A stretch of 64,000 nucleotides of DNA from Eledone cirrhosa (Eukaryota), in NCBI GenBank assembly GCA_964016885.1, contig OZ024742.1, forward strand, positions 222,208,001 through 222,272,000. Reading direction: 5' to 3'. The notes beneath the pieces were generated by a model. The model worked only from the letters and a program-made list of their open reading frames with translations. It was not told the DNA's origin and ran no database searches. Positions 4,958-63,189 of the stretch are shown piece after piece. Position numbers and translations under genes: made by a program. Every line of letters starts with the position of its first letter. The first letter of the stretch is position 1.

Positions 4958-5171
4958 CAAAGAAAGTGTGGTAAGAAATCAGGGTGACCTTAACGCACCA
5001 GAATACTCGATACTTAGGGTAGTAGAGTGAGTAATAGGAAAAGAGTCAGGATCCCGATGGCTGAGCTCCAGCCGTTTCGACAGCTAGATCCGAACTAATA
5101 TGACCTCTGGCTTACTTCGGATCTAGCTGTCGAACAGCCGGAGCTCAGTCGTCGGGGTCCTGACTCTTTTC

Positions 5172-5178
<7 letters not shown>
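4956..5178. mobile_element. TA-flanked hairpin element; family also at 30882-31030 and 52194-52252
   Basis: Inverted arms ~5033-5094 and 5117-5175. Shared GCTGAGCTC(A/C)AGCCGTTTCGAC motif. All three copies abut (TA)n. Confidence 0.65.
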
Positions 5179-5229
<51 letters not shown>

Positions 5230-5249
5230 GATATAGATATATATATATA

Positions 5250-5987
5250 GAATATAATATGTTGAGAAGGTAACACACCAGAGAGAGACATATAGTGCGT
5301 TATCAATAATACAGGGAAAAACCACTATATTATTGATAACGCACTATCAACATATTATATTCTAAAGGGCTCAGGATCTCTTCCCCTTTGAGCACATTAT
5401 TTACAGGGAATAACGACGGCCTATGCCTCCGTTAATTTATCGTGATATTTCGCTCCTAACAACAGCCTTTCCTATCTCTGTTTTGTTGAGCACTCTTCTC
5501 TGAGTGGCTTTGGGCTGCCCTTTCTAGCAGTTCGTCTCTCAGAGGCCACTGGTTCACTGCCCTTAAACACGCTGTGACTTCTCTCTCCCACGTGTAGCTG
5601 GACAGTCAATTGTAAAATTCTCTTAGTGTTGTCTGAAATGTATAGCCTTACACACGCTGATGAACCGAGACTAACATTTCTTTCAACAATTTTTCTGGTG
5701 AAACATATCTCTGGATTTGTACGTGTGTTATATAGTTATAGAGGTATTTATTTACGCTTTAATTTATATTTTTAATTATCGTGTCTATAGTCTGCCTTTC
5801 ATAGGTTATAGATTCCATACACTGGTGGTTTTTTCCCTGTATTATTGATAACGCACTATATATCTCTCTCTGGTGTGTTACCTTCTCAACATATTATATT
5901 CTAAAGGGCTCAGGATCTCTTCCCCTTTGAGCACATTATTTACAGGGAATAACGACGGCCTATGCCTCCGTTAATTTATCGTGATAT
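5250..5987 (+). mobile_element. Penelope-like pLTR/retrozyme-like element: ~539-nt unit with terminal redundancy and inverted 5' segment
   Basis: 5348-5447 is repeated at 5887-5986. 5250-5325 is the reverse complement of 5825-5902. Internal hammerhead; (TA)n on both sides. Confidence 0.78.
5650..5728 (+). ncRNA. Type I hammerhead ribozyme
   Basis: ACACACG-CTGATGA-ACC...GGT-GAA-ACATATC(TCTG)GATTTGT-A-CGTGTGT: 7-bp stem I, GUA site at 5719-5721. Confidence 0.85.
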
Positions 5988-6097
5988 ATATATATATATA
6001 TATATAAAACAAAAGGTCGAGAGGACTATTCAGGTGTGCCGAAACCATGATAAAATGTATCCAGTATTGTTGGGTGCGGGATTATATATAAGCTTGA

Positions 6098-6131
<34 letters not shown>

Positions 6132-6597
6132 GTATATATAAAGAGTAATATATATATATATTACTCTTTTACTCTTTTACCTGTTCCAGCCATTCCGCTG
6201 AGAGCATGCTGGGGCACTACCCTTGTATATATATATAGATATTTACATTATGGATACACGTGCTCTGCCATTTACTTGCACATTAATTTATTAATTTTAC
6301 GAGCAGACTGTTTGTCCCGTTGCGCAAATAACTTAAACACTCATCATTGGAAACCAATGGAGGTCTAACACATACACACATACATATACACATACATATG
6401 CACGTCTGCGGAATGCTAAGCCACCTACGTAGTAATTTCACAAGCAGATTGTTGCTTTTGTGGATGAAGCAACTGGAACTCTCATCGTCGGAAACCGACG
6501 GAGGTCCAACAGAAGTTTACTTTGTGAGTGAAACTGTTTGTAAACCCATCAAATAGATTGTAACTTTAATACAAAGGCCCAACCATGTCACTTACAA

Positions 6598-10679: not shown

Positions 10680-11575
10680 TGCTGTAGTGCTGCTGCTGGT
10701 GGTGGTGTTGCTGCTGCACCTGCTACTGGTGCTTGTAATGCCGGTGGTGGTGGTGGTGTTGGTGGTTGGTTGTGGTGGAGGTGGTGGTGGCGATGGTGGT
10801 GGTTGCGGTGCTGATGGTTGGTTGTAGTAGAGGTGGAGGTGGTGGTGGTGGTAGTGGTGGTGATGGTGGTTGGTTGTAGTGGTGGTGGTGGTGGTTGTGT
10901 TGCTGATGGTTGGTTGTAGTGGTGATGGTCGAGGTGGTGGTGGTGCTGCTGGTGGTTGGTTGTAGTGGTGATGGTGGTGGAGGTGGTGTGGTTGTGGTGC
11001 TGGTGGCTGATTGTAGTGGTGCTGGTGGTCATGGTGATAGTGGTGGTGGTTGGTTGTAGTGGTGATGGTGGAGGTGATGATGGTGGTGGTGGTGGTGGTG
11101 GTGGTGGTGGTGGTGGAGGAGGTGGAAGTGGTTGTAATGGTGGTATGTGTCTGATGGACAGCTAGCAGCATTACCATCACTTTCACCACCATCATCGTCA
11201 TCACTACCTCTATCATTACCACCACCATCATCACCATCACCATCATCACCACCACCACCAGCAGCATCGCAACCGTGACCATCACTACCATGACCATCAC
11301 CATTACCACCATTATTACCATTACCATCATCATCATCACTACCACCATCATCACCATCGTTATCACCATCACCACCGCCATCACAACCACTACCATCACC
11401 ATCACTATCAACACAACCATCAATACCATCATCTCCACCACCATCATCATTACCACTACCACCACCACAAGTACAACCATCACCACCACCACCATCACCC
11501 CCCCCCCCCCCCCATCACCACCACTACCATCAACACCATCACCATCACCACTACCATCACCGACACCATCACCAA
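10680..11575. repeat. Degenerate (GGT)n then (CAC/CAT)n trinucleotide tracts in opposite orientation
   Basis: GGT-rich 10680-11145 switches to ACC/ATC-rich 11165-11575. Confidence 0.9.
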
Positions 11576-12498: not shown

Positions 12499-12937
12499 AA
12501 CTAGACCTAAAAAATGCGCAAGCTCAAAAGAGCCACAATAAACCTTCAAAAGTATGGGACTAGAGTTGTTGCACAAAAATATTGTAATCATTATCTATCG
12601 TACATTCTGTCGCATCCTTTTATAAAAAAAGAGACTCATAACGAACTGAAGACGACACGATAATTATTTAAGCTAATGTTCAATATCTCATATTAGATGT
12701 TTAGTAATGATTAATACGAAATGCACTTAAACCAAATTCTATATTATAAATTTACTTAAATAATTATCGTGTTGTCTTGAGTTCGTTATGAGTCTCTTTT
12801 TTATAAAAGGATGCCACAGAATGTACGATAGATAATGATTACAATAATTTTTAGCAACAACTCTAGTCCCACACTTTTGAAGGTTTATTATAACATTCTG
12901 TGGCTCTTTTGAGCTTGCGTATTTTTCAGGTCTAGTT
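12499..12937. mobile_element. Fold-back element with ~175-bp inverted arms ending in CTAG
   Basis: Arms 12499-12672 and 12755-12937. No hammerhead core found. Confidence 0.7.
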
Positions 12938-13507
12938 TAATTTTTTTTTAAAGGCAACGCTTGTAATAACTCTAGTTAAACATGATATATATCAATAATA
13001 AATTATCGTTGTAATGTAATTAGATTATATCATTGTTATTTTATAAATGATCTTATAAATATTATTGTAAGAACATAAAACGAACAATAATATGGACAAA
13101 TATACAAGTAAATATGATACAACCAATATTATAAGCATGTTATAACGAACTGAAAAAAAAATAGTTAATATAAATTTAAAAAATCATATATAAATTAACA
13201 ATATAACTTACCAAAACGAGAAAAATATGTTGATGATAAAACGACGAAATACAGGAGGAAGATTCGAAAGCGAAACGATAAATAAACGTGCAAACAAAAT
13301 AGCGGATGCTTTTGAGCAACAATTACTCTCGTTGGTTGATTAGCCAATAAGACGATGAAATTAGCCAATAAGACGATACATTACAAAACATGTTTGGCAG
13401 CGATCACCACGGCCAGCGACACTCTTGAAAATTTAATTCACAAGCTACGCTTATGTCAGACACGCAGACTTAAAACATTCTGTTGTTAGTCACTGCATGT
13501 CTAACAG

Positions 13508-15985: not shown

Positions 15986-16377
15986 TTGTTCTTTGAGTCT
16001 CAGTCATTGATGTTATTTAAGTGGAAAGTTTGTTGAAATGAATATCAAGCCGCCACCTGCAGCCTCAGATATTCAGGACATATCGGAGGGTTCTTGCTGT
16101 TCCCAGCAAGCATGCCTTTTGAAGTGTTCCAAAAAGCGGGGCGGGGCCAATTTTCTTTAACCATCCCTGGAAACTCCTTGAGATAGTACCTAGTGCGCCT
16201 ATGACAATCGGGACCACTTTGACTTCATGGCAGTTCCAAATCCTTTTTACCTCCCACTTTAAGTCCTGGTATCGATTAATTTTCTCCTTCTCCTTCTCTT
16301 GCACTCTCGTGTCGAATGGGCAGGCCACATCCACAATCAGACACAATCTTTTTTCCTTGTCCAAAACCACCAGGTCA
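15986..16377 (-). mobile_element. 5'-truncated R4/Dong-type non-LTR retrotransposon (restriction-like endonuclease C-terminus)
   Basis: DLVVLDKEKRLCLIVDVACPFD...EKINRYQDL...VVPIVIGALG...LQKACLLGTARTLRYVL* (stop 16065-16067) is the RLE tail. Flanked by (TAA)n on both sides, the known Dong target. Confidence 0.88.
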
Positions 16378-16392
16378 TTATTATTATTGTTA

Positions 16393-16483
<91 letters not shown>

Positions 16484-17772
16484 GCTGCTGCTGCTGCTGC
16501 TGCTGTTGTTGTTGCATTGTTGTTATTGTTGTTGTTGCTGCTGCTGCTGTTGTTGTATTGTTGTTATTGTTGTTGTTGTTGTTGTTGTTGCTGTTTCTGC
16601 TGTTACTGTTGCTGCTGCTGTTGTCGAACCTCATCTGATTTCAGGAACAAGTGTTGCAGTTGTTCTGGCAAGAGAACTGTCTGCTTGTTAAATTAACATG
16701 AAAGTGGCTGAGCATTCCACACAGACATGTACACTTAATGTGTTTCTTGAGGAGATTCAGTAAGGTGAAATAAAAGGCTTTGTTCAAGGACACGACATAC
16801 TGCTGGGAATTGAACTCATGACCTTACAATTGTGAGACTGCACTCTAACCACTAAGCCACTCACCTTCATGGGATTCTAATAAAAGGAAATTTTTCTAAT
16901 TCCATTTTTTTTTCCTTCAACTGATGAAAACAAGGTTCATTTATTCTTTGATGCATCAAAATATCTCCAGATCAAACAAGTAGCTGAAGAACAGCATTGC
17001 AGTTAATTATTCGTAGTGTTTATTTTTTTAGTTTTTAGTTGTGTTTTTTTCACATAACACTATTAAAGCATTTTGTTACCACAATATTAATGGAAGCAGA
17101 TGATACCAGCCAGCATTGTTTGCAGTGACTCATTACTTTATTGCTGTTCTCTGTTAAAACCCCACCCCAAAAAAACTGTGTCTGAAAATATTTATCTTCA
17201 TTTCCACTTTATTTTTCATGCATTTTTATACAGCAAATATAAAAAATTCAAGTGCCTTTTGCGATTATGAAAATGGATAAAAGAAAGGTAAAGGCAAAGA
17301 CTCAAGGGTCACATAAGAATGGGGAGGGGGAAGGGGGTGATGGCCTAGGGCGTGGCGGTATTGGGGCTGTGCCCTGTGGACAAGACCACAGGCAATGGCT
17401 AGCGACACTCGCTGCAACAGCCATCCCATCTCACAAGGCTCCTTCCTCAGATGGGTTGCAGAGTCTTTAGGATTTGGATTATCCTTTTCACTACCATACT
17501 TCTAATAAAAAGTGATGGCCTGTTATTTTTAAATACTTTTGAAAATAATCAAGAATTTGGAAAGATTTAGTGATATAACAAAGGTTCCTAAATAAAACTA
17601 TGATGGAAGATTTTAGATAAATATAAAAACTTTAACTCTTTCATTACCATATTTCTTATAAAAGATACTGCCTATGATTTTCAGATAATTTTGAACATAA
17701 TCAAGTATTGAAGAGATTTAGTAATATAACTAACTTTCTTATTATTTAACTGGTGTTTGGAATGTAACTTAA

Positions 17773-20384: not shown

Positions 20385-21106
<722 letters not shown>

Positions 21107-22800: not shown

Positions 22801-23687
22801 GTTTCTTTATGTGTACGTGTGTCCGATACACACAGACACATATTTATATGTATTTCAACTCAAAAAATTCAATTGATATATATATATATATATATATATA
22901 GTAATAATAATAAATTTGAAGACTAAAATCCAAAGAGGGCTCGATAAGGATAAATATATATATCAAATATATAAGAACAGTAGAGCAAATATATGTACAT
23001 ATTTGGATGCGTGTATGTATTTATTTAATATCAATTACCTCTGTATTGTATTTTATTTACTTTATTCTTAACTCTGAAGCGGAGAATCATTCGGTTTCCT
23101 AGTTAGAATTTTAGTCTACGACTTCAGTTATACCATTTGTGTGGTTTTGTCTTTGCATGCAATTGTTCTCTACGCTCCACATTTGACGTATTATCTTCGT
23201 TTTTTCCGTTCATTGCCAGAGAACGTCTCTATGAACCACCTAAGAGAACATTAGTCTACGACTTCTTTTATACCATAAACGTGGTTCTGTCTTTGCGTGT
23301 AATTGTTTTTCACCGCTCCTATTAATGACGTATTATATTCGTTTTTCCCGTTCTTTGCCAGGGAACGTTTCCACGAACCAAAGTATCGTCTTCCTGTCTT
23401 CCTCCGGTTGCAACGTTTTTTGAAATATCCACTTCTGCGTTCACAGATTGACTTTGTTAGTTTCAGAAGATCCTGTTAAAGGTGAAAGCAGCGATTCTTT
23501 GCTTAAATTTTAATCTGTTATTTTAATAAATATATATATATATATTGTTATACTTTGGGAGGGTCATGTTGCCAATAAGAAACACACGCACCAGTTGCTT
23601 TCACTTCAATTTATTATAATAAATTTATAAATTTATAAATTTCTGGTTGGTTGGTTGGTTCCACAACCAGATAGTTGTTTATATATT

Positions 23688-23730
23688 GTCATAGTTCTTT
23701 CGTCACACACTCTGTGACCTCTTCAGTGAC
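23688..23730 (-). ncRNA. Minimal type I hammerhead ribozyme (inverted copy)
   Basis: Reverse complement of 24039-24081. Confidence 0.8.
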
Positions 23731-24038
23731 TGGGGATTCTTTTCTTTGTTTTTTGTGCCTCTCCTTTGTTCTGTCCTACGCCATTTTGTTTCTGTGTGTG
23801 TGTTGTGTGCTCAGCAACATCACAACTTACAATTAAGGACAAAATGAAAACACACACACACATAGAACAAACAACCAACCAGTAACATGTAAATAAACAA
23901 ATAAATAAATGAACATAAACACACACAGACACCCGGATGTGGCGCATGCGCAGACTGAGCACACAACACACACACAGAAACAAAATGGCGTAGGACAGAA
24001 CAAAGGAGAGGCACAAAAAACAAAGAAAAGAATCCCCA

Positions 24039-24081
24039 GTCACTGAAGAGGTCACAGAGTGTGTGACGAAAGAACTATGAC
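24039..24081 (+). ncRNA. Minimal type I hammerhead ribozyme
   Basis: GTCA-CTGAAGA-G-GTCACA(GAGTG)TGTGAC-GAA-AGAACT-A-TGAC; CUA site at 24075-24077. Confidence 0.8.
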
Positions 24082-24277
24082 AATATATAAACAACTATCT
24101 GGTTGTGGAACCAACCAACCAGAAATTTATAAATTTATAAATTTAATATAATAAATTGAAGTGAAAGTAACTGGTGCGTGTGTTTCTTATTGGCAACATG
24201 ACCCTCCCAAAGTATAACAATATCGGTTTCAACACACGATTTCAGATAAAGAATCTTGCTAAACAAATTCAGAAACG

Positions 24278-24395
<118 letters not shown>

Positions 24396-29950: not shown

Positions 29951-30362
29951 ATATATATATATGTATATATATATCATCATCATCATCATCATCAGTTAAC
30001 GTCCATGGTTAGACAGGTCCTATTTCGAGGCAAGTTGTGTCAGGTGATATAGGGGTATTTCTGGTTGGTCTTCTACGACTGGATGCCTTTCCTAACGCCT
30101 TCTTAATGCCAACCACATTTAATATAGAAATGGCTTCTATAGGACTAGAACTGTTTCATTCGTATGTATGTGTTTGTCTATAGGTGCTTAAGTGTGAATG
30201 TTCTTTATGCCTTTGCATTAATGTGTATATTTCTCTAAATATAGTTTTTTCAAAGAATCCCTGTTCTTAAAATCCCTTGGCCAACGACTTCCACCGAACC
30301 CAATCACCTCCTTCCCCTACCACCAGAAAAAGGTACAAATACCAACATACCACAATGACAGT

Positions 30363-30416
30363 TGGCTTTCCTGATGATTTCCTTCGAATGAAACAGTTCT
30401 AGGCCTGTAGAAGCCA
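30363..30416 (+). ncRNA. Type I hammerhead ribozyme
   Basis: TGGCTTTC-CTGATGA-TTTC(CTTC)GAAT-GAA-ACAG..CTGT-A-GAAGCCA. Same family as 159-209; partial inverted copy at 30121-30162. Confidence 0.8.
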
Positions 30417-30542
30417 TTTCTATATTGAATATAGTATATACTCTATTATGTACCTTTCTTACTGTGATTACCCCCGCTTGAACCCGGAATACCCATCTCT
30501 CTCTCCATATATATGATGTTCAACCATCTGGCAGGAAGGTAT

Positions 30543-30585: not shown

Positions 30586-31028
30586 TCCTGTGTCAGTGTT
30601 GAACAAAAAGGTGACATGGTTGCCTAAACACTGTACGGCGTAATTCGGGCTGTTTGTTTGTTTACAAACAAACAAACCGAGCATTATAATAAATGTTCGG
30701 TAAACCAATACGTGCATATATATATATGTGTGCATGTATGTATATATACATACTACTGTACGTCTGTATACATATATGTATGTACGTATACATACATACT
30801 TACATTTCAGTAAGTGCCGTACTAAGAGTGAGAAATGAAATTTCGTTTCATTCTATTCCATTTATATATATATATATATATAGGAACCAGTAAGACCCCG
30901 ACAGCTGAGCTCAAGCCGTTTCGACGGCTAATTCTGGACTAATAATTCCTATTACCCACTCTACTACCCCAAGTATTGAGTACTTTGGTGCGTTATGGTC
31001 CACCTGGTTCCTTACCACATTTCCTTTG

Positions 31029-31075
<47 letters not shown>

Positions 31076-31214
31076 TAGGTTTGAAGGTTCACCACTGGAT
31101 AGAGTTGGTCATTCCGTATGGTCAATCTTGATGTAATAATATGGAGAGTACTCAACGTAAAGCAGCTCAACCGTCTTCGTTTGTGTAGTTGGTGGTGCGA
31201 GTACGGAGTTAATT

Positions 31215-32410
31215 ATTATAATAAAATAACAGGAGGCTGGACTTGTGTAAATCCTTGAAAGGTTTATTATACTATGATCATTTCTATGACCGGGTTCCGT
31301 ATGAATCCGGTGATATCATCAGGTATTCAAAATATAATAAATGAATGTGACAGATAAAATCCATGGGGCTGAAAATCATAGACCCGAGGACGACCGACCA
31401 TCTAGCATCTTCCACTTTAGCCGGTCGCCCTCAAGTGCTGGCTATTTGGTCTACATAAGGCTATCTGGTGAGGGGGCGAAAGCTTATAATGTGCTACTAA
31501 CCTCCCGGTCAAAAAGAAAAAAAGAAAAATAGACAGAAAGAAGAAAAGTCAGAAGGCTAGGAATTGCCGTGAAAAATGTTATTCTAAAGAACCTATATCT
31601 TAACAGAGGTATATATTATAACAGAGGTATATATAATGGGCGTCTGCATGGTATAATGTGTGAACAGAAAATTGGAACGTTAAATTTTTGTTTAGATTTA
31701 TAGGATGAAAATTTAAAAAAAATTAAATTAAAGATTAAAATTATAAAATTTAAAAAAAATTAGAAAATTTTAAAAAAATTAGAAAATTAAAAATTAAACA
31801 GTTTAAAAAAATTTAAGGTTTGGGTTGGGAGATTTAGTTAAAGAATTTACAGAGAGAGTCTTTTATGAAAAGACTTTAAGTGTATTATAGAGATCCTCGA
31901 TAAGTTTTCAGGGTGGGATATAGAGTAAAGATTAAGTCCTTGTTTAGCAGTCAAACAGCACACGACAACTGCAGACTCCGGCCAGTGCATCCTAACAACG
32001 TGTCAGCCATTCCGAGTGAAATCGTCTAGCGAAAGATATGGAAATCAATTTTTCCGAGCACTCGAGGAATGTAACTGTTCTAGGCTTCGGGTGTGCTAGT
32101 GGGAAGTCAACCATTGTCGTTAGGCCATCGTTATACCAAAGGAGTACTATTAATTTACACAGGAGGGGGATTTGTTTAAGTGCCAGTAGAGGGAGGCATG
32201 ATACAGCTAATAGTTATGATTAGGCCTAGAATTTAAAGGTACTATATGGCAGTTAAAAACAGCAGCGCGGCAGGCCCCAGGGCGAAGTAAGTCGCTCCGA
32301 GTAATTTCATTTACCGAAAGAAGGGGAAATTTATTTTTCCAAGCCTCCCTTGAGTGCTTGGAAAAATAAATTTCCTCTAAAAGTCCAGCCTCCTGTTATT
32401 TTATTATCAT
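31215..32410 (-). pseudogene. 5'-truncated decayed Penelope-like element with short inverted terminal segment
   Basis: 31215-31244 is inverted at 32381-32410. Minus-strand LTAKQGLNL (~31928-31954) resembles a PLE ORF end. Hammerhead near the 3' end; TA tracts nearby. Confidence 0.55.
31269..31326 (-). ncRNA. Type I hammerhead ribozyme
   Basis: ATAC-CTGATGA-TATCACCGG..CCGGTCATA-GAA-ATGATCAT-A-GTAT; palindromic stem III, AUA site. Confidence 0.83.
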
Positions 32411-41003: not shown

Positions 41004-41052
<49 letters not shown>

Positions 41053-41171
41053 AGGTGAGTTTTATTGTAGCACAATAAAGCAATGCAAATATCGGATAAG
41101 TAGCACTCCAGAGTTTATAGGACTGGAGTATAAATAATATAAGATCAAAAGATGGTTAAAAGAGTTCCAAG

Positions 41172-41239
41172 TATTTTATTATGCGCATTTCAAAAACAAA
41201 TATCATGGGATGATATTTGCGTTCTCATCAGATAAAATA
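41172..41239 (-). ncRNA. Type I hammerhead ribozyme
   Basis: TATTTTAT-CTGATGA-GAACGCAAATATCA(TCCCA)TGATATTTGTTTTT-GAA-ATGCGCAT-A-ATAAAATA. Lies in a ~210-bp island (41051-41260) between two (TA)n tracts. Confidence 0.87.
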
Positions 41240-41257
41240 GGGAGACATGATATGAAG

Positions 41258-41293
<36 letters not shown>

Positions 41294-41313
41294 ATAAACA
41301 ACATAAGATAATT

Positions 41314-41376
41314 ATTTCATTTACCAGTGGTTTCTTGAAGACAGATATTTATGCCTGTCTTCATTCATCAGAAAAT
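41314..41376 (-). ncRNA. Type I hammerhead ribozyme (weak stem I)
   Basis: ATTTT-CTGATGA-A-TGAAGACAG..CTGTCTTCA-A-GAA-ACCACTGGT-A-AATGAAAT. The inverted copy at 42218-42280 has CTGATCA (G8C). Confidence 0.7.
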
Positions 41377-41825
41377 ATTTATTTATGAAGTAGTAATAAT
41401 GGATTTGAAAACAGAGTATAGGATAAATGAAAGTGAGGCAGAAATAAAATAACGGGCAAAAATTGAGGGGGAAAAAAAAAAGTAAATATCCAAATACATA
41501 CACATACACAAACTCACTCATATACGTAATAGAACGTAAACATATACATTCACACATAAATATATGTGCATCTGCATGGAAATACAAATACACCACATAT
41601 GCGTGTGATCTGTCACTCACATATGCGCAACGAATCATTGGGAAGTAGTTGGGGGACCAGATATAAATAAATATAATCAAAAAACAAGGATAGGAAATAA
41701 AATGAAAGCAAAAAGGGACGGGTTGACAACGAAAGGTGGGGGGGGGGATTAATAAATATATATATTTACCCATATTATTCAAAATATTAATAAATGAAAG
41801 ATATTCACATAATCAAAATATATGC

Positions 41826-41889
41826 TTTATTATATATATTTCAAAGGTACTGTGTTGTTTTTTTTCCCAGTAAGTCTTCATCAGATAAA
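41826..41889 (-). ncRNA. Type I hammerhead ribozyme
   Basis: TTTAT-CTGATGA-AGACTTACTG..CAGTACCTTT-GAA-ATATATAT-A-ATAAA; imperfect stem II base. Confidence 0.68.
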
Positions 41890-42378
41890 ATATATGATTT
41901 GATATATGACATACCGCTACTGTCTTGATTATACAATTCCAGTATACATACATACTGTTATTTTATTTCAGCCTCACTTTCATTTATCATATACTCTGTT
42001 TTCAAATCCATTATTACTTTGGCAGTATCGGTGGAGGGTCGGACGCCATGCTTTCCAGCATAGTTACGTCCCTTTACGATCTGAGTTCAAATCCCGCCGA
42101 GGTTGACTTTGCCTTTCATCCTTACGGGGTCGATAAAATAAAGTACCAGTAATGCACTGGATAATTGCTGGCCTTGTGCCTAAAGTAGAAACAATTATTA
42201 CTACTTCATAAATAAATATTTTCTGATCAATGGAGACAGACATAAATATCTGTTTTCAAGAAACCACCGGTAAATGAAATAATTATTTTATGTTGTTTAT
42301 TACATAACTAAAAAGCTCTGTAGCCTACATAGAGCACTCTCTTTTCCTTTACCTTTCCTACGGAAATACTTCATTTAT

Positions 42379-44489: not shown

Positions 44490-46190
44490 ATCATCATCAT
44501 CATCATCACCGTTTTACGTCCGTTCTTCCACGCTAGCATGGGTTAGACGGGTTGTCCTGTTGTGGGCAGTGTCTGGTCGGCTGACCATGCCTTGCTCATA
44601 CAGGAACTGATCTGGCTTGATTTCTACAGCTGGATGCCCTTCCTAACACCAACCTCATTTACAGTGAGTGCTGGGTGCTTTTTCGTGGCGCCTACACGTC
44701 CACTTTACAGTGTGGGCTGGGTGCTTTTTTGCCGTGGCACCTCCACGACCACCTTGCGGTGGGGGGGGGGGGAGTGGGGGCATATTGTTTATATGCTTCA
44801 GCATGTACCCATGGGAGGTCGGGTACCCTGTATTACTGCGTGACGCCAGAAGTCACGGTCGTGTGTCATTGACTTTGAGAGGTGTAGTTGGGTAAGGTCG
44901 GCTTTTATCACCTCATCCCAAGTCATCTTGGGTCTCCCCACTCCGCGGTTTCCATCAACTTCTAGTGCTCTGCACCTTTTTATGCAGCTGTCATCCTTCA
45001 TACGCATCACATGTCCATACCAGCGTAACCGCCTCTCCTGCACGCAGCATTTGATTCCTCTTATGCTCAGTCTCTCTCTCAATTCCTTTATGCTTTGTCG
45101 TTCACGTATATTACTGTTACACATCCATCGGAGCATGCAGGCTTCGTTTCTCTCTAATCTACGTAAGTCTTCCACCTTCAGCGCCCAGGTCTCACTACCA
45201 TGCAACATCGCTGTTCGGATACACGCATCATACAGTCTGCCTTTCATTCTGAGGGAGAAGCCTTTTGCAGCTAGCAGTGGTAGTAGTTCCCTAAACTTCT
45301 TCCATCCCGTTCTTACCCTAGTTATTGTACTATCTGAGCACCCACCTCCGTTGCTAATTCGGTCACCTAGGTAGCAGAAGCTGTCTACTGTTTCTACAGG
45401 GCCCTCCCAGAGATTGGTGGTACTTGTTTCCTGTGGCTGTTTGCTTGCTGTTTCAGCACAGCTGCTGCATGTGAATCCTACATTCTTAATTAAGCTTCCT
45501 GAGATCCCACTACATCTCTTGTGTACCCATTGTTTGCATTTGGGGCAGAGAATGGAGTTCCTACCTACACCTTTCCTACATACTGAGCAAGGCCATTTCC
45601 CTGAGGGGATCTGGGTTCTGTTTTCTCGTCTACTTATAAGGACCTTAGTCTTTGTCATGTTGACTTTGAGGCCCTTTCTCTCTAGTCCCTGCTTCCAGGT
45701 TTGGAATTTATTCTCTAGTTCTACCATAGATTCAGCTATGAGTGCGAGGTCATCAGCATACAGGAGTTCCCATGGGCATCCGGTCTTAAACTCCTCCGTT
45801 ATTGCCTGCAGGACTATGATGAACAGGAGAGGGCTAAGAACAGAGCCCTGGTGGACCCCAACCTGTACGCTAAATTCCTCGCTATACTCATTGCCAATCC
45901 TAACTTTGCTGACTGCTCCCCTATACATGGCTTGTACCGCTTTCACAAGCCATTCATCTACTCCTAGTTTTCTAAGAGCCCACCAGATTACTGCACGTGG
46001 AACTCTGTCAAAGGCTTTCTCAAGGTCGACAAATGCCAAGTAGAGTGGCTTACTTTTAGCTAGGTACTTTTCCTGTAATTGCCTCACAAGGAAGAGGGCA
46101 TCAGTGGTGCCTTTCCCTGGTACAAACCCAAATTGCATCTCGTCTATATTCACCCGGTCCCTAATCAGCTGTGCTATAACTCTTTCTGTT
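44490..46190 (-). mobile_element. 5'-truncated RTE LINE with 3' UTR and (GAT)n tail
   Basis: Open RT frame, repetitive 3' UTR ending in GGACGTAAAACGG-(TGA)n; the 5' end abuts (TA)n. Confidence 0.92.
44798..46153 (-). CDS. RTE-clade reverse transcriptase (partial) with inserted PHD-like finger
   Basis: QFGF, FVDLEKAFDRV, GVHQGSVLSPLLF, LLYADDL, FCYLG, RRLRWYGHV; CSVC..LCPKCKQWVHKRC..FTCSSC C4HC3 pattern after the YADD region. Confidence 0.93.
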   Translation of the reverse strand: MNIDEMQFGFVPGKGTTDALFLVRQLQEKYLAKSKPLYLAFVDLEKAFDRVPRAVIWWALRKLGVDEWLVKAVQAMYRGAVSKVRIGNEYSEEFSVQVGVHQGSVLSPLLFIIVLQAITEEFKTGCPWELLYADDLALIAESMVELENKFQTWKQGLERKGLKVNMTKTKVLISRRENRTQIPSGKWPCSVCRKGVGRNSILCPKCKQWVHKRCSGISGSLIKNVGFTCSSCAETASKQPQETSTTNLWEGPVETVDSFCYLGDRISNGGGCSDSTITRVRTGWKKFRELLPLLAAKGFSLRMKGRLYDACIRTAMLHGSETWALKVEDLRRLERNEACMLRWMCNSNIRERQSIKELRERLSIRGIKCCVQERRLRWYGHVMRMKDDSCIKRCRALEVDGNRGVGRPKMTWDEVIKADLTQLHLSKSMTHDRDFWRHAVIQGTRPPMGTC

Positions 46191-47282
46191 ATATATATAT
46201 ATATATTAGTATGGTATGGACAGTATTATATACCTGTGTGTGTGTATCTGTATGGTATAGCCAGTTTTATAAACCTAAGTATATATAGTTACGATATAAG
46301 ACTAGGCAATTTCATCAGGTGTTATTTGCAGAATTATGTAACAGGATTACATTGAATCCAAACATGCAATGGAAGATAGGAGATAGAGAAAAAATAGAAG
46401 AGAGAGAGGGAGAGAGTGAGAGAGAGAGGGGGGAGAGAAAGAGAGAGAGAGGGCATTCAGTCATAGAAAACTTGCTAAACAAAGGGCCATGAGGACCCTT
46501 CAACTGTATCAAAGACATGATAACTGCCCTAATGTTGGTGTCACAATAAAATGCACTTGGTCAAGTATGTAATCATATGTCAGTGAGATGCTGGCTCATC
46601 TATTAGGTCTGTAGTCCTGCTTGATCACTGACCCCATCTCTGACAACCCCTCCAACCCTTGCTAGCAGATAAAACAGACATTGAATGATGATGATGATGA
46701 TGATGTGTGTGTGTGTGTATGTATGTGTACGTATATATCAGTATAGTATAGCTAATTATATAAACCTGTGTGTGTGTGTATCAGTATGATATGTCTAGTT
46801 CATTTTGTCAAATAAAGAATAAAAATTTAAATAAATTTCCAGCTTGCAGCAAAGGCTGATAAGAAGTATAGAGAGGTAGAGAACTGTGATAATAGTGCAA
46901 GTGATAGCTTTAATGTAGCTGAGCTCAGAATCTTAATGAGGAAGATATTACTGGATACTTTTACTTCCAAGCACATCAGGAAAATAAAACTGAGATAAAC
47001 CAGACTGAATAATATAGATTTAACATGAAAAGTGTAACTAAAATCACAAGAAAAACTTTGCTATTTACATTGATGTATTTATAAAGTAAAGGACACAATA
47101 AGTTCACTCTTTAGGTATGTTTACAAGAACAGCTTGCCTTCGCTCACTATTATATTATTATATAATAGTTTTTACACATCGTTTTGTTAAATAAATGCAA
47201 TTATGTCTATGAGCTTAAGAGATTTGCTTCACAATTATAAGGTTTGGGGTCCAGTCCTATTGTATGAGTCATTGGGTAATTA

Positions 47283-51672: not shown

Positions 51673-51680
<8 letters not shown>

Positions 51681-52061
51681 TAAATCATGTCTTTAGAATC
51701 ATCAGATAAAATATATACTATTTCTTCTTCTAATTAGCATAATTAACCATATAAAAAATCAATTGGATCAAGCTATAAGAAGAAAGGCTCTTATGGAGAA
51801 ATCTCCGACAAATAACCGAACGTAGCCTCTTCGCGGTGGCCCCGATCGAATATTTATCCAACATGTCGAAATGTTGGATAAATACTCGATTGGGGCCACC
51901 GCGAAGAGGCTACGTTCGGTTATTTGTCGGAGATTTCTCCATAAGAGCCTTCCTTCTTATAGCTTGATCCAATTGATTTTTTATATGGTTAATTATGCTA
52001 ATTAGAAGAAGAAATAGTATATATTTTATCTGATGATTCTAAAGACATGATTTATGATATA
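51673..52061. mobile_element. ~190-bp near-perfect palindrome in (TA)n
   Basis: Arms 51673-51864 and 51871-52061 with a 6-nt loop. Contains TATTTTAT-CTGATGA (52030-52036) as in the 41172 HHR, but no matching GAAA. Confidence 0.78.
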
Positions 52062-52157
52062 TTGCTCTGATTTTTTAATTTATTAATTCTTCATAGAGCT
52101 TAAAAGTGACCAGTTGCAACATGTATATATCTATAACTTTATGTATATGTTAACCTT

Positions 52158-52198
<41 letters not shown>

Positions 52199-52320
52199 AG
52201 AAATAGCCGTCGAAACGGCTTGAGCTCTGCTGTCAGGGTCATATTTGTTCCTATATATATATATATATCATGATAATGATATATATATATATATTTGTGT
52301 GTATATACATATATATATAT

Positions 52321-52631: not shown

Positions 52632-53487
52632 AAATGATATATATATAGTAAGCCATTTTAACATATGAAAACAGATAAAGGGAGGTGAAGAAATTTTTAC
52701 AGCTCAAAATATTAGATCTATTACAGTAAACTATTCATAAGGCTACATACAATTTTTAATTGCATGAATTCCTTAATACAAGTGTTTATGTAGACTCACA
52801 GAGCAAATATTACATTGAAAATGTAATATCATTTTCAATGTTATATATATATATATTAGCGTGGAAGATAGACATTAAACGATGATGATGATGATGATAT
52901 ATGAAATTTAGTAGAAATAGAATCTTTCACCTTGTTTTTGACCGAAGAAATTTTAGCCTGATTGTGTGATTTAAAATCGTCTAAAAATGGAAAAGGATGA
53001 GTGTATATCATCATTTTACATTCGCTTTTCCCTGCTTGCAAGGGTGGGACGGGAACTGATTCTGGCTTGATTTCTACAGCTGGATGCCCTTCCTAACACC
53101 AACCTCATTTACAGTGAGTGCTGGGTGCTTTTTTTCTGTGGTGCCTACACGTCCACTTTACAGTGTGGGCTGGGTACTTTTTTGCTGTGGCACCTCCACG
53201 ACTACTTTGCAGAGGATTGATAGGGACCCCAGTCCTATCATCTCATTTCTACAGCTGAGTAAACTGGAGCAATGTGAAATAAAGTGTCTTGCTCAAGGAA
53301 ACAACACATCACCCGGTCCGAGAATTGAACTCACAACCTTTTGATTGCAAGCCCAATGCTCTAACCACGCGTCTGTTTGCAGGGTAGGCCGTTTGAGCAC
53401 TCGATGCTCTCATAGAGCAGAGTATGATATCACAGAAAAAAGAGAATCAGTGTTGCTGCAAATGGAAAATCTGCTTCGTAGAATCAA

Positions 53488-53583
53488 GACGTATCTGAGG
53501 ACCTTGCGATTTTCAGAGTCAGGTTCGATCATCACATCGATTGTGCCTCAAGTTGGTTGCCAGAGAAACGATTGTAATATGTC
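53488..53583 (+). ncRNA. Type I hammerhead ribozyme with long stem II
   Basis: GACGTAT-CTGAGGA-63-nt stem II region-GAA-ACGATTGT-A-ATATGTC. Enclosed by inverted repeat 53426-53456 / 53602-53631, next to (TA)n. Confidence 0.75.
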
Positions 53584-53636
53584 CAATAAATTCCATTCGT
53601 CGCAACACTGATTCTCTTTTTTCTGTGATATATATA

Positions 53637-54528
53637 CAGGGTGTGGACGATATTTGTTCGCAATTTTCAATTGCTAATTTTATGCAAATTTTTTTTACTT
53701 CCATTGTCACTCTTGTCTTCATAAAAACAGTGACTATATTTCCACTATTTATTTTCAGAATAATTGATTATGAATAATTTTGAACCTCCAAATTTGTGGA
53801 AGAGACACGGAGTTCTTCTTGGAATCCGCGCCGGGAGGACAAATAAGACCAGAAGATCAACTCCCAGAACAACAAGTGGCATGCTGTCTCATCCAAAGAT
53901 GTGCCCAGAGTCATGCAGACAAAGTTTCCAGCGACAATATTGTTCTTAGGTGTCGTCAGCAGTCAAGGTGACGTCATGCCACCTCACTTCTTCCCTGAGG
54001 GCCTCAAGCTGAACACCGATGGCTACATCCGCGTTCTGAGCGAGGTAGTAAAGCTGTGGATCGACCAGGTAGCTGGAGGTAGGCCGTATGTGTGGCAGCA
54101 AGACTCAGCGCCCTGCCATACCAGCCGAAAGACCCAAGCCTGGCTGACAGAGAACTTCGTCGACCACACTTTACCTGACATCTGGCCTCCTAGCTCGCCT
54201 GACTGCAACCCCCTCGACTTCTTTGTGTGGGGTGCAGTGGAACGAGACACCAACAGATCTAGCTGCAATACGAAAGATGATCTGAAGGACAGGATCACAA
54301 GTGCCTTTAGGGGCCTAAGTCGGGGAACAGTGACGAAGGCCTGTAGCCGGTTCTGAGGCTACCTTGAGGCCGTCATCAAAGCCAATGGCGGGTTTATCAA
54401 GTGAGATCGAAAAAACAAGTCATGAAGACAAACTGACCCAAGTTTGATAAATATATTTTAAAAAATAAAACTACTGTGTTATTTTTTCCTAGACAGTAAT
54501 CTTGCGAACAAATATCGTCTGCACCCTG
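53637..54528 (+). mobile_element. Internally deleted DD37D (maT-type) Tc1/mariner transposon
   Basis: 27-bp TIRs CAGGGTGTGGACGATATTTGTTCGCAA / TTGCGAACAAATATCGTCTGCACCCTG with TA TSDs. Confidence 0.93.
53770..54403 (+). pseudogene. DD37D transposase remnant
   Basis: WQQDSAPCH...WPPSSPDCNPLDFFVWG has 37 residues between the 2nd and 3rd D. The N-terminus (MNNFEPP..) jumps to DQKINSQN, so the HTH and first D are deleted; premature TGA at 54354-54356. Confidence 0.9.
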
Positions 54529-59131: not shown

Positions 59132-59576
59132 CGTGTAAGTGAGTAGAGTAGCGTGTGTGTGTGTTTGTTGTATGTATGAGTGTTGCTGTGTGCACGCATA
59201 TGTATGCGTGTGTGTGTATGTCGTACGTATAAGTGTCAATAAGTAATTTTTTTTTTTTTTTTTTTTTTTGCGCGGGGACATAGAAATAATCGGGCTGGAT
59301 GCCCGATCGCGCAGTTAAACCACTGGGAGTGAAGAACCCCTAGCCCTTGTCAGGGTATTCTTCTAGGAGAAGGCATCTCAGGAAACTGGGTTAACACCGA
59401 TATAAAACCTGCGGCTCAGTAGTTACCGATGATGTTGATCTTTTCTTCTTTTCGGGTTATAGCTACTGTCGCTCAGAGAGTGGGATTGGTTCAGTGCACA
59501 GTCTTTCCTCACTTTAAAAATATTCGTCACGCACAGGCATTGCACGAGTGCATTAATAATTATTAATAGTGTACTA

Positions 59577-59607
<31 letters not shown>

Positions 59608-59645
59608 TATTATTACTTTTTTTTTTTTTTTTTTTTCCCAATTCA

Positions 59646-61833
59646 ATGATGATCCAGAACAATGTAAACGAGATAATTGCCAATTTGGGTTCTGGAACAA
59701 AAAGGATCATTGGCAATAAGGGCAGGGGCCCCAAGTTATCACAACCTGGGCCCGCCCGTCATCGTGCCATTGTAATAGAGCCAAACAGGGCATTTAGTCT
59801 TGGCTGCTGGAACGTACGGACGCTGCTTGACAGGGATTCTTTGGAGCGTCCTGAACGAAGGACCGCTCTTGTTGCAAAGGAGCTTCGACGTTACGATCTT
59901 GACATCGTGGCTTTGTCTGAGACGAGGTTAGCTGGAGATGGTCATCTTACGGAATTTTGTGGAGAATATACATTCTTCTGGAAAGGAAGAGATGAAGGAA
60001 CCAGAAGAGAGGCTGGGGTAGGATTTGCTGTTAAGACTGTACTGGTGAATAAATTAGAAGAATTCCCAGTGGGGATTAGTGAGCGTCTTATGTCCATGAG
60101 AGTTCCGCTGGACAAGGGAAGATATGCTACCCTGGTGAGTGTGTATGCTCCAACTATGAATTCTGTCGATGAAGAAAAACTGTCCTTTTACCATGCCTTG
60201 AAAGGTGTTTTAAGAAATATCCCTCAGGCAGACAAAGTCATCGTGCTTGGTGACTTTAATGCTAGAGTGGGTAGGGATTTTAACACATGGAATGTAATCG
60301 GAAGGCATGGGGTGGGAAAGTGTAACAGCAATGGTATGCTCTTGCTGCAGATGTGTGAGGAGCTGGATCTGTGTGTTACCAACACGATGTTCCAACAAAA
60401 GAACAAATTCAAGACCACATGGATGCATCCTGCATCTAAGGAATGGCATCTTTTGGACTACGTCCTAGTCAGGATGCGTGACAGACAGGATGTGCAGTGT
60501 GTTCGTGTTCTTCGTGGAGCTGAGTGCTGGACGGACCACCGCCTGGTACGCGCAAAAGTGAATCTAATCACCAAACGTAAAATCCGGGCTCCTGGTATTA
60601 CCCTGCCCAAAAGATTGAATGCTGCTCGTCTTAAGGATAAAAATGTGAAGAGGACATTGGAAGAAGAGATGCAGGCTGCAGATCTTGGTGAGGATTGGCC
60701 GACCCTTAAAAAGTCGGTTTATGATGTAGGCAGACGTGTTCTGGGATTGGTGCAGAGAAAACATCAGGACTGGTTTAATGAGAAAGATGTGCATATAGAT
60801 GACTTGTTGGCTGATAAGAGGCGTGCTCTGTCACGCTACTTGACGGCAAAACCACAGGAGAGGAATACGTTGCATGAGGAGCTCAGGGATGTAAAATCAC
60901 GTGTTAGGCGGAGTCTTTCTCAGATGAAGGATCAGTGGTGGAGTGAGAAGGCTGGTGAGATACAAACTGCGTCTGATTGCAATAACACAAAGCTGTTGTA
61001 CAGTCTCTTGCGTGAGGTTTATGGACCGTCTTCTTCTCTGGTGACACCGATTCGCAGCAAGGATGGCAAAGAACTTCTTCGTGACTCACAGGGAATTCTA
61101 CGAAGGTGGCGAGAGCACTTTGATGATCTTTTGAATCAGCCGTCTGTCGTCAGTGAAGATTTCCTCAATCTCATTCCGGAAAGTCCTGTGAAAGTAGCTC
61201 TCGCAGAACCTCCGACACTTGTGGAGGTTGCAGTGGCTATTTCGAAGCTGAACAGTGGAAGATCTCCAGGTATGGATGGCATACATGCTGAGCTCCTACA
61301 ATATGGTGGTGAGAGACTCCTGCAACATCTTCACTCTCTGTTTGGAAGGATATGGGCTAATGAATCCGTGCCTGAGGACTGGAGAGATGCATTAATGGTG
61401 GTCTTGTACAAGGGAAAGGGTAACAGGAATGATTGTGGGAACTACAGAGGTATATCATTGCTTTCTGTCGTGGGGAAAGTTTTATGTAGGGTGCTTCTGG
61501 ACCGTCTGCTGACACACATTGCAGATTGTGTCCTTCCTGAAAGTCAATCTGGTTTTCGTGCTGGACGCGGCACTACTGATATGATCTTCTCAGCTAGACA
61601 GCTCCAGGAGAAGTGCATTGAACAGGGCTTGGATCTGTATCAGGTTTTTGTCGATCTGACAAAGGCTTTCGATACTGTCAACAGAGATGCATTATGGAAG
61701 GTTCTCCAGAAACTTGGTTGCCCTGATAAGTTCCTTGCTTTAGTTAGGTCTTTCCATGACGACATGAAGGCTTGGGTTAATGTCGGAGGTAACATGTCGG
61801 AGCCTATCTCAGTAAAAAATGGAGTGAAACGGG
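59646..61833 (+). CDS. RTE ORF, N-terminal part: apurinic endonuclease and start of RT
   Basis: GCWNVRTL, ALSETR, SVYAPT, LGDFNARVG, LLDYVL, TDHRLV, NYRGISLLS, SQSGFR, FVDLTKAFDTV. Frame shifts at NGVK|GDIPAPTLF. Confidence 0.93.
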
Positions 61834-63189
61834 GATATTCCAGCACCGACCCTGTTTGCCATATACTTTGCAATGGTTTTCTGTATTGCATTCAGGAATT
61901 GCGAGCATGGTGTTTACATCCGATATCGAACCTCAGGCAGCATATTTAACATCAGGCGCTTTGCTGCGAAGACAAAAGTATTTACATCAGTCATAAGAAA
62001 CCTCTTGTATGCAGATGATTGCGATCTTGTAGCGCACACAGAGAGTGATATGCAGCACATTTTGAATGTATTTTCTGACGCTTGCACTGCCCTGGGTTTG
62101 ACTGTCAGTCTCAAGAAAACCGTCGTCATGTACCAACCTGCCCCTGGTAGGCAGTACACTGAACCAAACATCTATGTGTATGGCAAACGACTTGGAGTGG
62201 TTGATCAGTTTGTCTACCTGGGAAGCACTGTCAATCGATACGGCAACCTTGACAGTGAAATCTCACTTAGGATTAGGAAAGCAAGTGATGCTTTCGGAAA
62301 GCTAGAAAGGCGACTCTGGGGTCGGCGAGACATATGCAGGAGGACAAAGGTAAAGGTGTACAGGGCATGTGTACTCTCTTGTCTTCTTTATGCCTGCGAG
62401 ACCTGGGTCACATATCGACGCCACCTTAAGCAATTGGAGCGTTTCCATCAGATGTGTCTCAGACGGATCCATGGCGTTCACTGGAGGGACCACATCAGTG
62501 ATGTCGAGATTTTGGAAAGCTCTATGTGTGACAGTATAGAAGCTCTTGTGCTTAAGCAGCGACTCCGTTGGAGTGGTCACCTTGCCAGGATGAAGGATTC
62601 TAGAATACCAAAACAACTCTGCTATGGAGAGTTGGTTAAAGGAAAACGACCGCCACATAAACCAAAAAAGAGGTATAAGGATTCCTTGAAAGCCTCTCTG
62701 AAAGACGCTAACATCTCTGCTGATACATGGGAAAATATTGCTGCTGATCGTAATAAATGGAGAAAGACTGTATATGAGGGAAAAGTTGCCTTTGAGGCAT
62801 CTCGAATCGCACACGAGAAAGTAAAGCGGGACGTGAGGAAGGGCATTGCTGTTGCACTTCCAGACGGCGAGGGTCCTCCTATGTTTCTGACATGCAGCGT
62901 CTGTGCGAGACTCTGCCTAAGCAAAGCTGGACTCGAAAGTCATCTTCGCAGTCATAAAGTAAGACCAGTGGTTGACTACCAGACTGCTGTTGGAGATGCT
63001 ACTCATCATGCTTGCCAAACATGTGGTAGAGAATGTAAATCAGCAGGAGGACTCAAGCGACATGCAAAAGTACACGAACTCCAACCACAGCCGACTATTC
63101 CCAGTAAATGTTTTGGTTGCCGACTCTGTGCAAGACATTTTAGATCATTGGCTGGGCTAAAAAGCCACATTCGATCGCAGCACTGTTAG
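61832..63189 (+). CDS. RTE ORF, C-terminal part: RT, thumb and three C2H2 zinc fingers
   Basis: GDIPAPTLF, LLYADDC, FVYLGS, LRWSGH; CSVC..HLRSH, CQTC..HAKVH, CRLC..HIRSQH. Confidence 0.93.

Follow-up and report, generated by a model that had tools for sequence, protein, structure and literature searches.

The DNA analyzed here is a 64,000-nt stretch of the Eledone cirrhosa genome (assembly GCA_964016885.1, contig OZ024742.1, positions 222,208,001 to 222,272,000 of the forward strand; hereafter the window, numbered from its first letter). At 5248-5987 it contains an insertion in which a hammerhead motif is accompanied by both direct and inverted repetition, and the question raised by this locus is what kind of element was inserted and by which machinery it was written. 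The stretch was found to consist of 1.19 copies of a non-coding 539-nt hammerhead unit plus an inverted 78-nt piece, set in a (TA)n microsatellite, and in all probability it is a non-autonomous element (a non-LTR retrozyme) copied by the enzyme of a Penelope-like element (PLE). It is from the layout alone that a PLE enzyme is named as the likely partner.

One complete unit (5449-5987, plus strand, 39% GC, its length given by the period of the direct repeat) is preceded by an upstream partial copy (5347-5448, plus strand), a pseudo-LTR-like redundancy consisting of 18 nt and the tail and identical to 5886-5987 at 102 of 102 positions with a period of 539 nt. The first-pass annotation, made from the letters of the sequence, had given this direct repeat as 5348-5447, 539 nt apart, and had recognized 5250-5325 as inverted at 5825-5902; both repeats were confirmed with slightly larger extents, the inverted piece being 5248-5325 (minus strand), the reverse complement of 5903-5825 with two differences (one substitution and one 1-nt indel). 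This piece is interpreted as an inverted 5'-truncated copy, that is, a putative second cDNA arm, and on the outer side it ends at the equivalent of 5901-5903 of the unit (site 2), a position given as a range because the outermost two letters of the arm (TA) are common to the microsatellite. A 22-nt fold-back or template-jump piece (5326-5347, plus strand) was additionally detected at the inversion junction; within it 5328-5347 repeats 5840-5859, a repeat absent from the earlier annotation, and the junction (5292-5347) is therefore a palindrome. The one-sided tail (5904-5987, plus strand) is about 84 nt long (80-86, both ends being blurred by TA microhomology), and its 3' end (5983-5987, plus strand; site 1) adjoins the right (TA)n. 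Both ends of the insertion abut the target microsatellite (left run, 5177-5249; right run, 5984-6005) and have 2-5 letters in common with it, and no target-site duplication was discernible in the flanking (TA)n. When the 539-nt unit was folded as a circle, a z value of -3.4 was obtained, and none of 60 shuffles equalled it.

The hammerhead that had been marked at 5650-5728 proved to possess a full type I core (plus strand, predicted cleavage after 5721), in the order ACACACG / CTGATGA / stem II / GAAA / stem III / GTA^ / CGTGTGT, where stem I is 7 bp long, the base of stem II comprises 4 bp, and the long stem III contains one U-U mismatch in this copy. The same stem lengths occurred in 0 of 5000 dinucleotide shuffles of 5449-5987, and a looser rule was satisfied in 1 of 5000. 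This hammerhead was undetected in the Rfam search (0 matches up to E = 10), which returned for the window only microsatellite-driven miRNA matches and two HH9 matches (615-686 and 996-1067), none of them in 5248-5987. The predicted catalytic fold of this copy (-8.8 kcal/mol) is about 6 kcal/mol less stable than the minimum free energy fold (-14.7 kcal/mol), and the local folding of the region was no better than that of shuffles (z about -0.8). Among the family contigs described below, none of the 40 listed substitutions (of 54) fell in the hammerhead core or stem I, and a G at 5706 in 10 contigs restored the stem III pair. Judged from these alignments, the ribozyme core appears conserved across copies of the 539-nt family.

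Parts of the unit were contained in 13 public sequencing runs, none of which is on record as RNA. Contigs from 4 of the 13 runs were compared with 5240-6095 at 85% likeness; runs X8-X13 (small word shares) and the RAD-seq runs were left out, and 5994-6095, where repeats were skipped, was excluded from the coverage reading. In run X1, 1979 contigs matched the stretch, the multi-copy state expected of a non-LTR retrozyme, and 5, 4 and 1 contigs came from runs labelled as three other organisms. The X1 contigs were distributed over identities of 99% or more (583), 95-99% (599), 90-95% (530) and below 90% (267), 1396 of them (about 70%) being below 99%. Summed contig depth, which is not a copy number, was 5,325-219,368 in the bins across 5356-5964 and 24 in the bin of this copy's junction; the unit is therefore common and the junction private. 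Position 5886/5887 was crossed by X1 record 7 (15 differences) and X4 record 12, and 5448/5449 by X6 record 14, so that closure of the unit on itself is not confined to this locus. Opposite-strand joints were found at five other places in the unit (5391/5708, 5434/5712, 5493/5902, 5616/5740 and 5844/5897), each in one contig only at 85% likeness; the one joint of the five for which orientation is given is head-to-head, like the 5248-5987 copy. Of three 'skip' joints in the same comparison, 5322-5800 and 5324-5804 were dropped as likely mapping effects of the inverted arm, the third being 5548-5623. The 539-nt unit is a high-copy, diverged family with variable inversion points.

These observations bear on two other explanations. 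Long TA runs flank the stretch, its direct repeat is perfect and none of the contigs listed spans the junction of this copy, features to be expected if unique DNA had been duplicated and inverted locally or if the assembly had gone wrong at the microsatellites. Such an origin is nevertheless hardly credible, in view of the high-copy diverged family with other inversion points, the hammerhead beyond chance, the 2 differences among 78 positions by which the inverted arm departs from its template, and the ten further insertions built in the same way. Secondly, the stretch might represent no more than the 3' end (pLTR) left by truncation of an autonomous PLE, in place of a self-contained non-autonomous family, given that 5' truncation affects most PLE insertions and that a relationship exists between retrozymes and pLTRs (bioRxiv 10.64898/2026.07.22.740005). 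We regard this as unlikely, since the sequence runs into itself after 539 nt, other records cross both unit junctions, and the longest stop-free stretch in the six frames of the unit is 87 codons, the two longest complex frames of the unit having no Pfam match. The RT plus GIY-YIG ORF of an autonomous PLE was not found in 5248-5987, and when the 223 window frames were searched against Pfam, neither a GIY-YIG nor a PLE-type match was obtained; apart from noise, the matches were to LINE-type RT and a DDE fragment.

The layout recurs in the surroundings of the locus. Eleven fold-back insertions in the window, chosen by geometry and mostly unrelated in sequence, have one layout in common: beside 5248-5987 itself and 405-1347 there are 1653-2031, 2443-2666, 4958-5176, 12499-12981, 20563-20850, 23546-24279, 31075-32410, 41291-42378 and 51679-52160. 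In each, one outer end lies at or beside a microsatellite, and the opposite end is extended by a one-sided tail of 44-140 nt; an automatic finder returned 17 rows, recovering 10 of the 11 chosen insertions and one more. Element 405-1347 has a unit of 466 nt, a redundancy of 93 nt, a tail of 69 nt, an inverted arm in which 405-789 corresponds to 1277-893, and a minimal hammerhead at 1007-1051 (Rfam HH9, under the gathering score). No similarity between it and 5248-5987 was detected by blastn at E<=1e-3, as the first-pass annotation had stated; the further proposal made there, that a shared insertion mechanism and not an assembly glitch underlies the common layout, is supported by the diverged family with other inversion points and by the eleven fold-backs. 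In two neighbouring families only, namely 4958-5176, 30879-31028 and 52195-52268, and 2443-2666, 22902-22992 and 23461-23545, both outer ends were seen to be constant and the inner ends variable, the 539-nt family showing variable junctions. Constant outer ends combined with variable inner ends are the trace to be expected if priming occurred at two fixed sites and truncation varied.

In the window, at least nine different hammerhead-like motifs were recognized (159, 1007, 4023, 5650, 24039 and 30543 on the plus strand; 31326, 41239 and 41890 on the minus strand), and one fixed hammerhead rule gave 6 window matches compared with at most 1 in 200 block shuffles. By eye, additional candidates were noticed near 30370 and 41370. 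A different hammerhead family is represented by two diverged copies (106-297 and 30117-30487), the second of which has an inverted arm. On the minus strand, 31075-32410 is a hammerhead element of 1.3 kb that has an inverted arm of 30 nt and lacks a long frame; it is possibly a longer non-autonomous unit. An abundant SINE-like repeat (42019-42203) is inserted inside the fold-back element 41291-42378 and occurs also at 2084, 9490, 13530, 28348, 32720, 54550 and 56482, among many places; it presumably resembles a repeat from octopus genomes. LINE-type RT frames (Pfam RVT_1, AP endonuclease) and other mobile-element frames were located in 44801-46225, 59463-63186, 16068-16640 and 53637-54528, and among these four are a frame resembling by eye the C-terminus of a restriction-like endonuclease and a DDE transposase fragment between inverted repeats. 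A long imperfect hairpin formed from (GGT)n and (ACC)n runs at 11026-11296 gave spurious miRNA matches. The microsatellites and LINE frames of the window point to a genome of animal type. Exact-pattern scans of metagenome, viral and prokaryote contigs returned nothing.

The insertion was next compared with endonuclease-bearing PLEs (Penelope/Poseidon, Neptune and Hydra), as described in the available text of PMC8557442, PMC3846280, PMC11167929 and PMC2377424. PLEs are laid out as a partial tandem with an adjacent inverted truncated copy and a one-sided tail (PMC8557442; PMC8969392), and all three features were found together in 5248-5987, which also has in common with PLEs the 5' truncation of the inverted copy, the type I hammerhead and the AT-rich or microsatellite target. 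The overlap at the inversion junction is 18 nt, compared with the 15 bp by which the inverted pLTR of a PLE overlaps the direct one, and a palindrome is present at the inverted junction in both (PMC3846280). The tail, about 84 nt, exceeds the 30-40 bp given for PLEs (PMC8557442). Unlike PLEs, 5248-5987 has no ORF and its whole unit measures 539 nt, and its hammerhead has a long stem III instead of the minimal form found in PLEs. Non-autonomous Chlamys elements such as MRC1 are similar in being non-coding passengers of PLEs in which pLTRs and head-to-tail copies arise, but they belong to green algae, are mostly without canonical hammerheads, and have a demonstrated 3' similarity to their autonomous partner (PMC8557442).

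From this comparison, the insertion was likely produced by reverse transcription that started at two places separated by about 84 nt. The unit would be transcribed through more than one unit length, and the hammerhead would cut after 5721 and could yield a 539-nt monomer or circle. A PLE protein would attach to the tail region of the RNA, the RCTC...GAGY hairpin described below being the likely place, and would nick both strands of the TA run. One nick would prime reverse transcription at site 1 (5983-5987), giving a copy of ~641 nt that extends 102 nt into the next unit, and the other would prime at site 2 (5901-5903), giving the 78 nt of the inverted arm. The one-sided tail would then be the offset between the two starts, and the two cDNA ends would be joined, here with a short fold-back. 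Comparable steps have been reported for a lizard PLE, with which both strands of AT-rich DNA were nicked and extended in vitro and of which two adjacent internal RT start sites bound the tail (PMC11167929).

Two priming events that yield two inverted fragments of one RNA, joined head-to-head, are also known from L1 twin priming (PMC2837659), and a SINE-like passenger of a LINE inverted in this manner was considered as the source of the stretch. LINE-type RT frames are present in the window (44801-46225 and 59463-63186), and 2 of the 5 foreign joints have an end between 5886 and 5903, where one would be expected if two reverse transcriptases collided on one RNA (P = 0.037; second test P = 0.050; orientation given for 1 of 5). 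In L1, however, the first priming takes place on the poly(A) tail and the second internally (PMC2837659), whereas the second start of 5248-5987 appears family-fixed; the stretch has neither a poly(A) or repeat tail nor a discernible target duplication, its direct arm extends over more than one unit, and a family-fixed start of the inverted arm, as seen in two neighbouring families, is not predicted by twin priming. Origin by twin priming is thus very improbable, and priming by a PLE enzyme is retained as the preferred explanation.

As the ~641-nt copy passes the ribozyme site into a second unit, the template in the proposed scheme would have been either a circular or multimeric RNA or a read-through transcript that was not cut, and the balance between a linear and a circular or multimeric template is about even. 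In one variant within the preferred explanation, the same PLE machinery acts, but a circle is not formed and the ribozyme takes no part in this insertion; the 102-nt redundancy would be a pseudo-LTR with a promoter or transcript start, and the layout would be regenerated from a linear, uncut read-through RNA about 1.2 units long. We give this variant a fair share of belief that falls somewhat short of half. Penelope transcripts start in the upstream pLTR of the partial tandem (PMC2377424; PMC6765202), uncleaved RNA was the main in vitro substrate of the lizard PLE, whose own ribozyme was dispensable (PMC11167929), and the two elements of the window that exceed unit length end 18 and 24 nt beyond site 2. 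On the other hand, the contigs show no place where many molecules start or stop, no strong loose-end cluster was seen at 5347/5886 among the 8 listed of 141, and the apparent conservation of the ribozyme core speaks for a role of the ribozyme. The stops past site 2 and the joints in 5886-5903 are weak hints of either a two-enzyme collision or a transcript start at this place.

The unit itself was compared with the non-LTR retrozymes of animals. These are short repeats of low GC content that contain a type I hammerhead, and their expression as circles is reported in coral, mussel and axolotl (PMC7229834). They have been proposed to be non-autonomous PLE derivatives, and in the same study cleavage failed for 8 of the 9 retrozymes predicted in Xenopus (bioRxiv 10.64898/2026.07.22.740005). 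The present unit resembles them as a short non-coding sequence (539 nt) with GC under 45% (39%) and one type I hammerhead per unit, the motif at 5650-5728 being of the canonical form, and likewise in its high copy number, its self-pairing as a circle and the mobilisation by PLEs proposed for it. Its 539 nt exceed the ~170-400 nt of tested invertebrate retrozymes (PMC7229834) and lie inside the 51-972 bp of the 2026 survey (bioRxiv 10.64898/2026.07.22.740005). Retrozymes occur as tandem dimers to multimers (monomers are noted too), whereas 5248-5987 is a dispersed 1.19-mer with an inverted arm and a tail; inverted arms or tails of retrozymes are not described in the available text of PMC7229834 (0 occurrences of 'inverted') or of bioRxiv 10.64898/2026.07.22.740005. 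The 2026 survey asks for two ribozyme-bearing units and this copy holds one ribozyme, and no ribozyme dimer was seen among the contigs, which are too short to show one. A plant-type LTR retrozyme, defined by a type III hammerhead in paired LTRs and a 4-bp target duplication, does not match the stretch and was rejected on the grounds of type I topology, a single ribozyme and no discernible duplication. The unit likely works like a PLE-moved retrozyme; its formal membership is incomplete, neither a ribozyme dimer nor a partner gene having been seen in the contigs and the window frames.

A RCTC...GAGY(AC) hairpin was recognized at the start of the tail (5908-5934, plus strand; second copy at 5369-5395). 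RCTC...GAGY, mostly followed by RC, opens 8 of the 11 fold-back tails including that of 5248-5987, starting in these eight 2-16 nt after the outer end of the inverted arm; when 405-1347 and 5248-5987 are set aside, 7 of the 9 other tailed fold-backs begin their tail with it. It is not in the tails of 405-1347, 23546-24279 and 12499-12981. Since the motif was first noticed in the same tails, the statistic was corrected for motif choice: the best of 128 comparable motifs reached 8 tails in 0 of 3000 shuffled sets and 7 tails in 6 of 3000. The tails are otherwise unalike (best local score, 20). On the list of the automatic finder, the hairpin was present in 9 of 11 strong rows and 0 of 6 weak rows; the 'antisense' control (0 of 11) tests position alone because the motif is self-complementary. 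In the hammerhead family of 106-297 and 30117-30487, the tail hairpin is intact in the first copy (234-254) and partly lost in the second. A held-out scan with RCTC...GAGYRC gave 34 window matches, reduced to 21 loci by merging nested matches and dropping the training elements, and 5 of the 21 lay within 130 nt of a TA run, compared with a background of 12.4% (window only). Further short insertions with RCTC...GAGY near the 3' end were noted at 41051-41262 (minus strand), 6140-6225 (plus strand) and 53383-53631 (minus strand), the tail of the last being common to 1653-2031.

Helitron/Helentron-type elements carry terminal hairpins and use AT-rich targets, and the shared motif could accordingly be the terminal hairpin of a passenger of DNA rolling-circle replication. 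The strand-specific hammerheads, the 5' truncation and the head-to-head arms with a one-sided tail fit PLEs instead (PMC8557442, PMC3846280), and a rolling-circle origin is exceedingly improbable. Under the preferred PLE explanation, the RCTC...GAGY hairpin is a candidate for a shared cis-signal and may possibly be what the enzyme reads. It was not seen in the available anole PLE stem-loop sequence, and no description of the motif was found in a literature search made without most subscription papers and Repbase. More tentatively, and with rather more doubt than belief, it may be proposed that one Penelope-type enzyme moves many unrelated small ribozyme RNAs via this hairpin, the first enzyme circling until it reaches the second start. 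The hairpin, lying 2-16 nt 3' of the second RT start, would then fix the beginning of the inverted arm, and over-length copies would stop about 20 nt past the second start because the first enzyme meets it on a circular or multimeric template. Element 405-1347, the tail of which is without the RCTC hairpin, perhaps has another partner.

Taken alone, the finding is modest, because the kind of element and the insertion layout have both already been published. In 5248-5987, a retrozyme-type unit is joined with the full PLE integration signature, two things usually described separately, and their joint occurrence supports the proposal that PLEs move animal retrozymes. How the PLE tail and inverted arm arise is called unresolved in the available text of the PLE papers, and the tail hairpin, if it holds genome-wide, would be a testable candidate for recognition by the PLE protein and for the origin of the tail and inverted arm. 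If a single enzyme does move these RNAs, the hairpin would represent a sequence-defined cis-signal for PLE priming, and the insertions would provide genomic evidence for PLE-driven copying of retrozyme RNAs.
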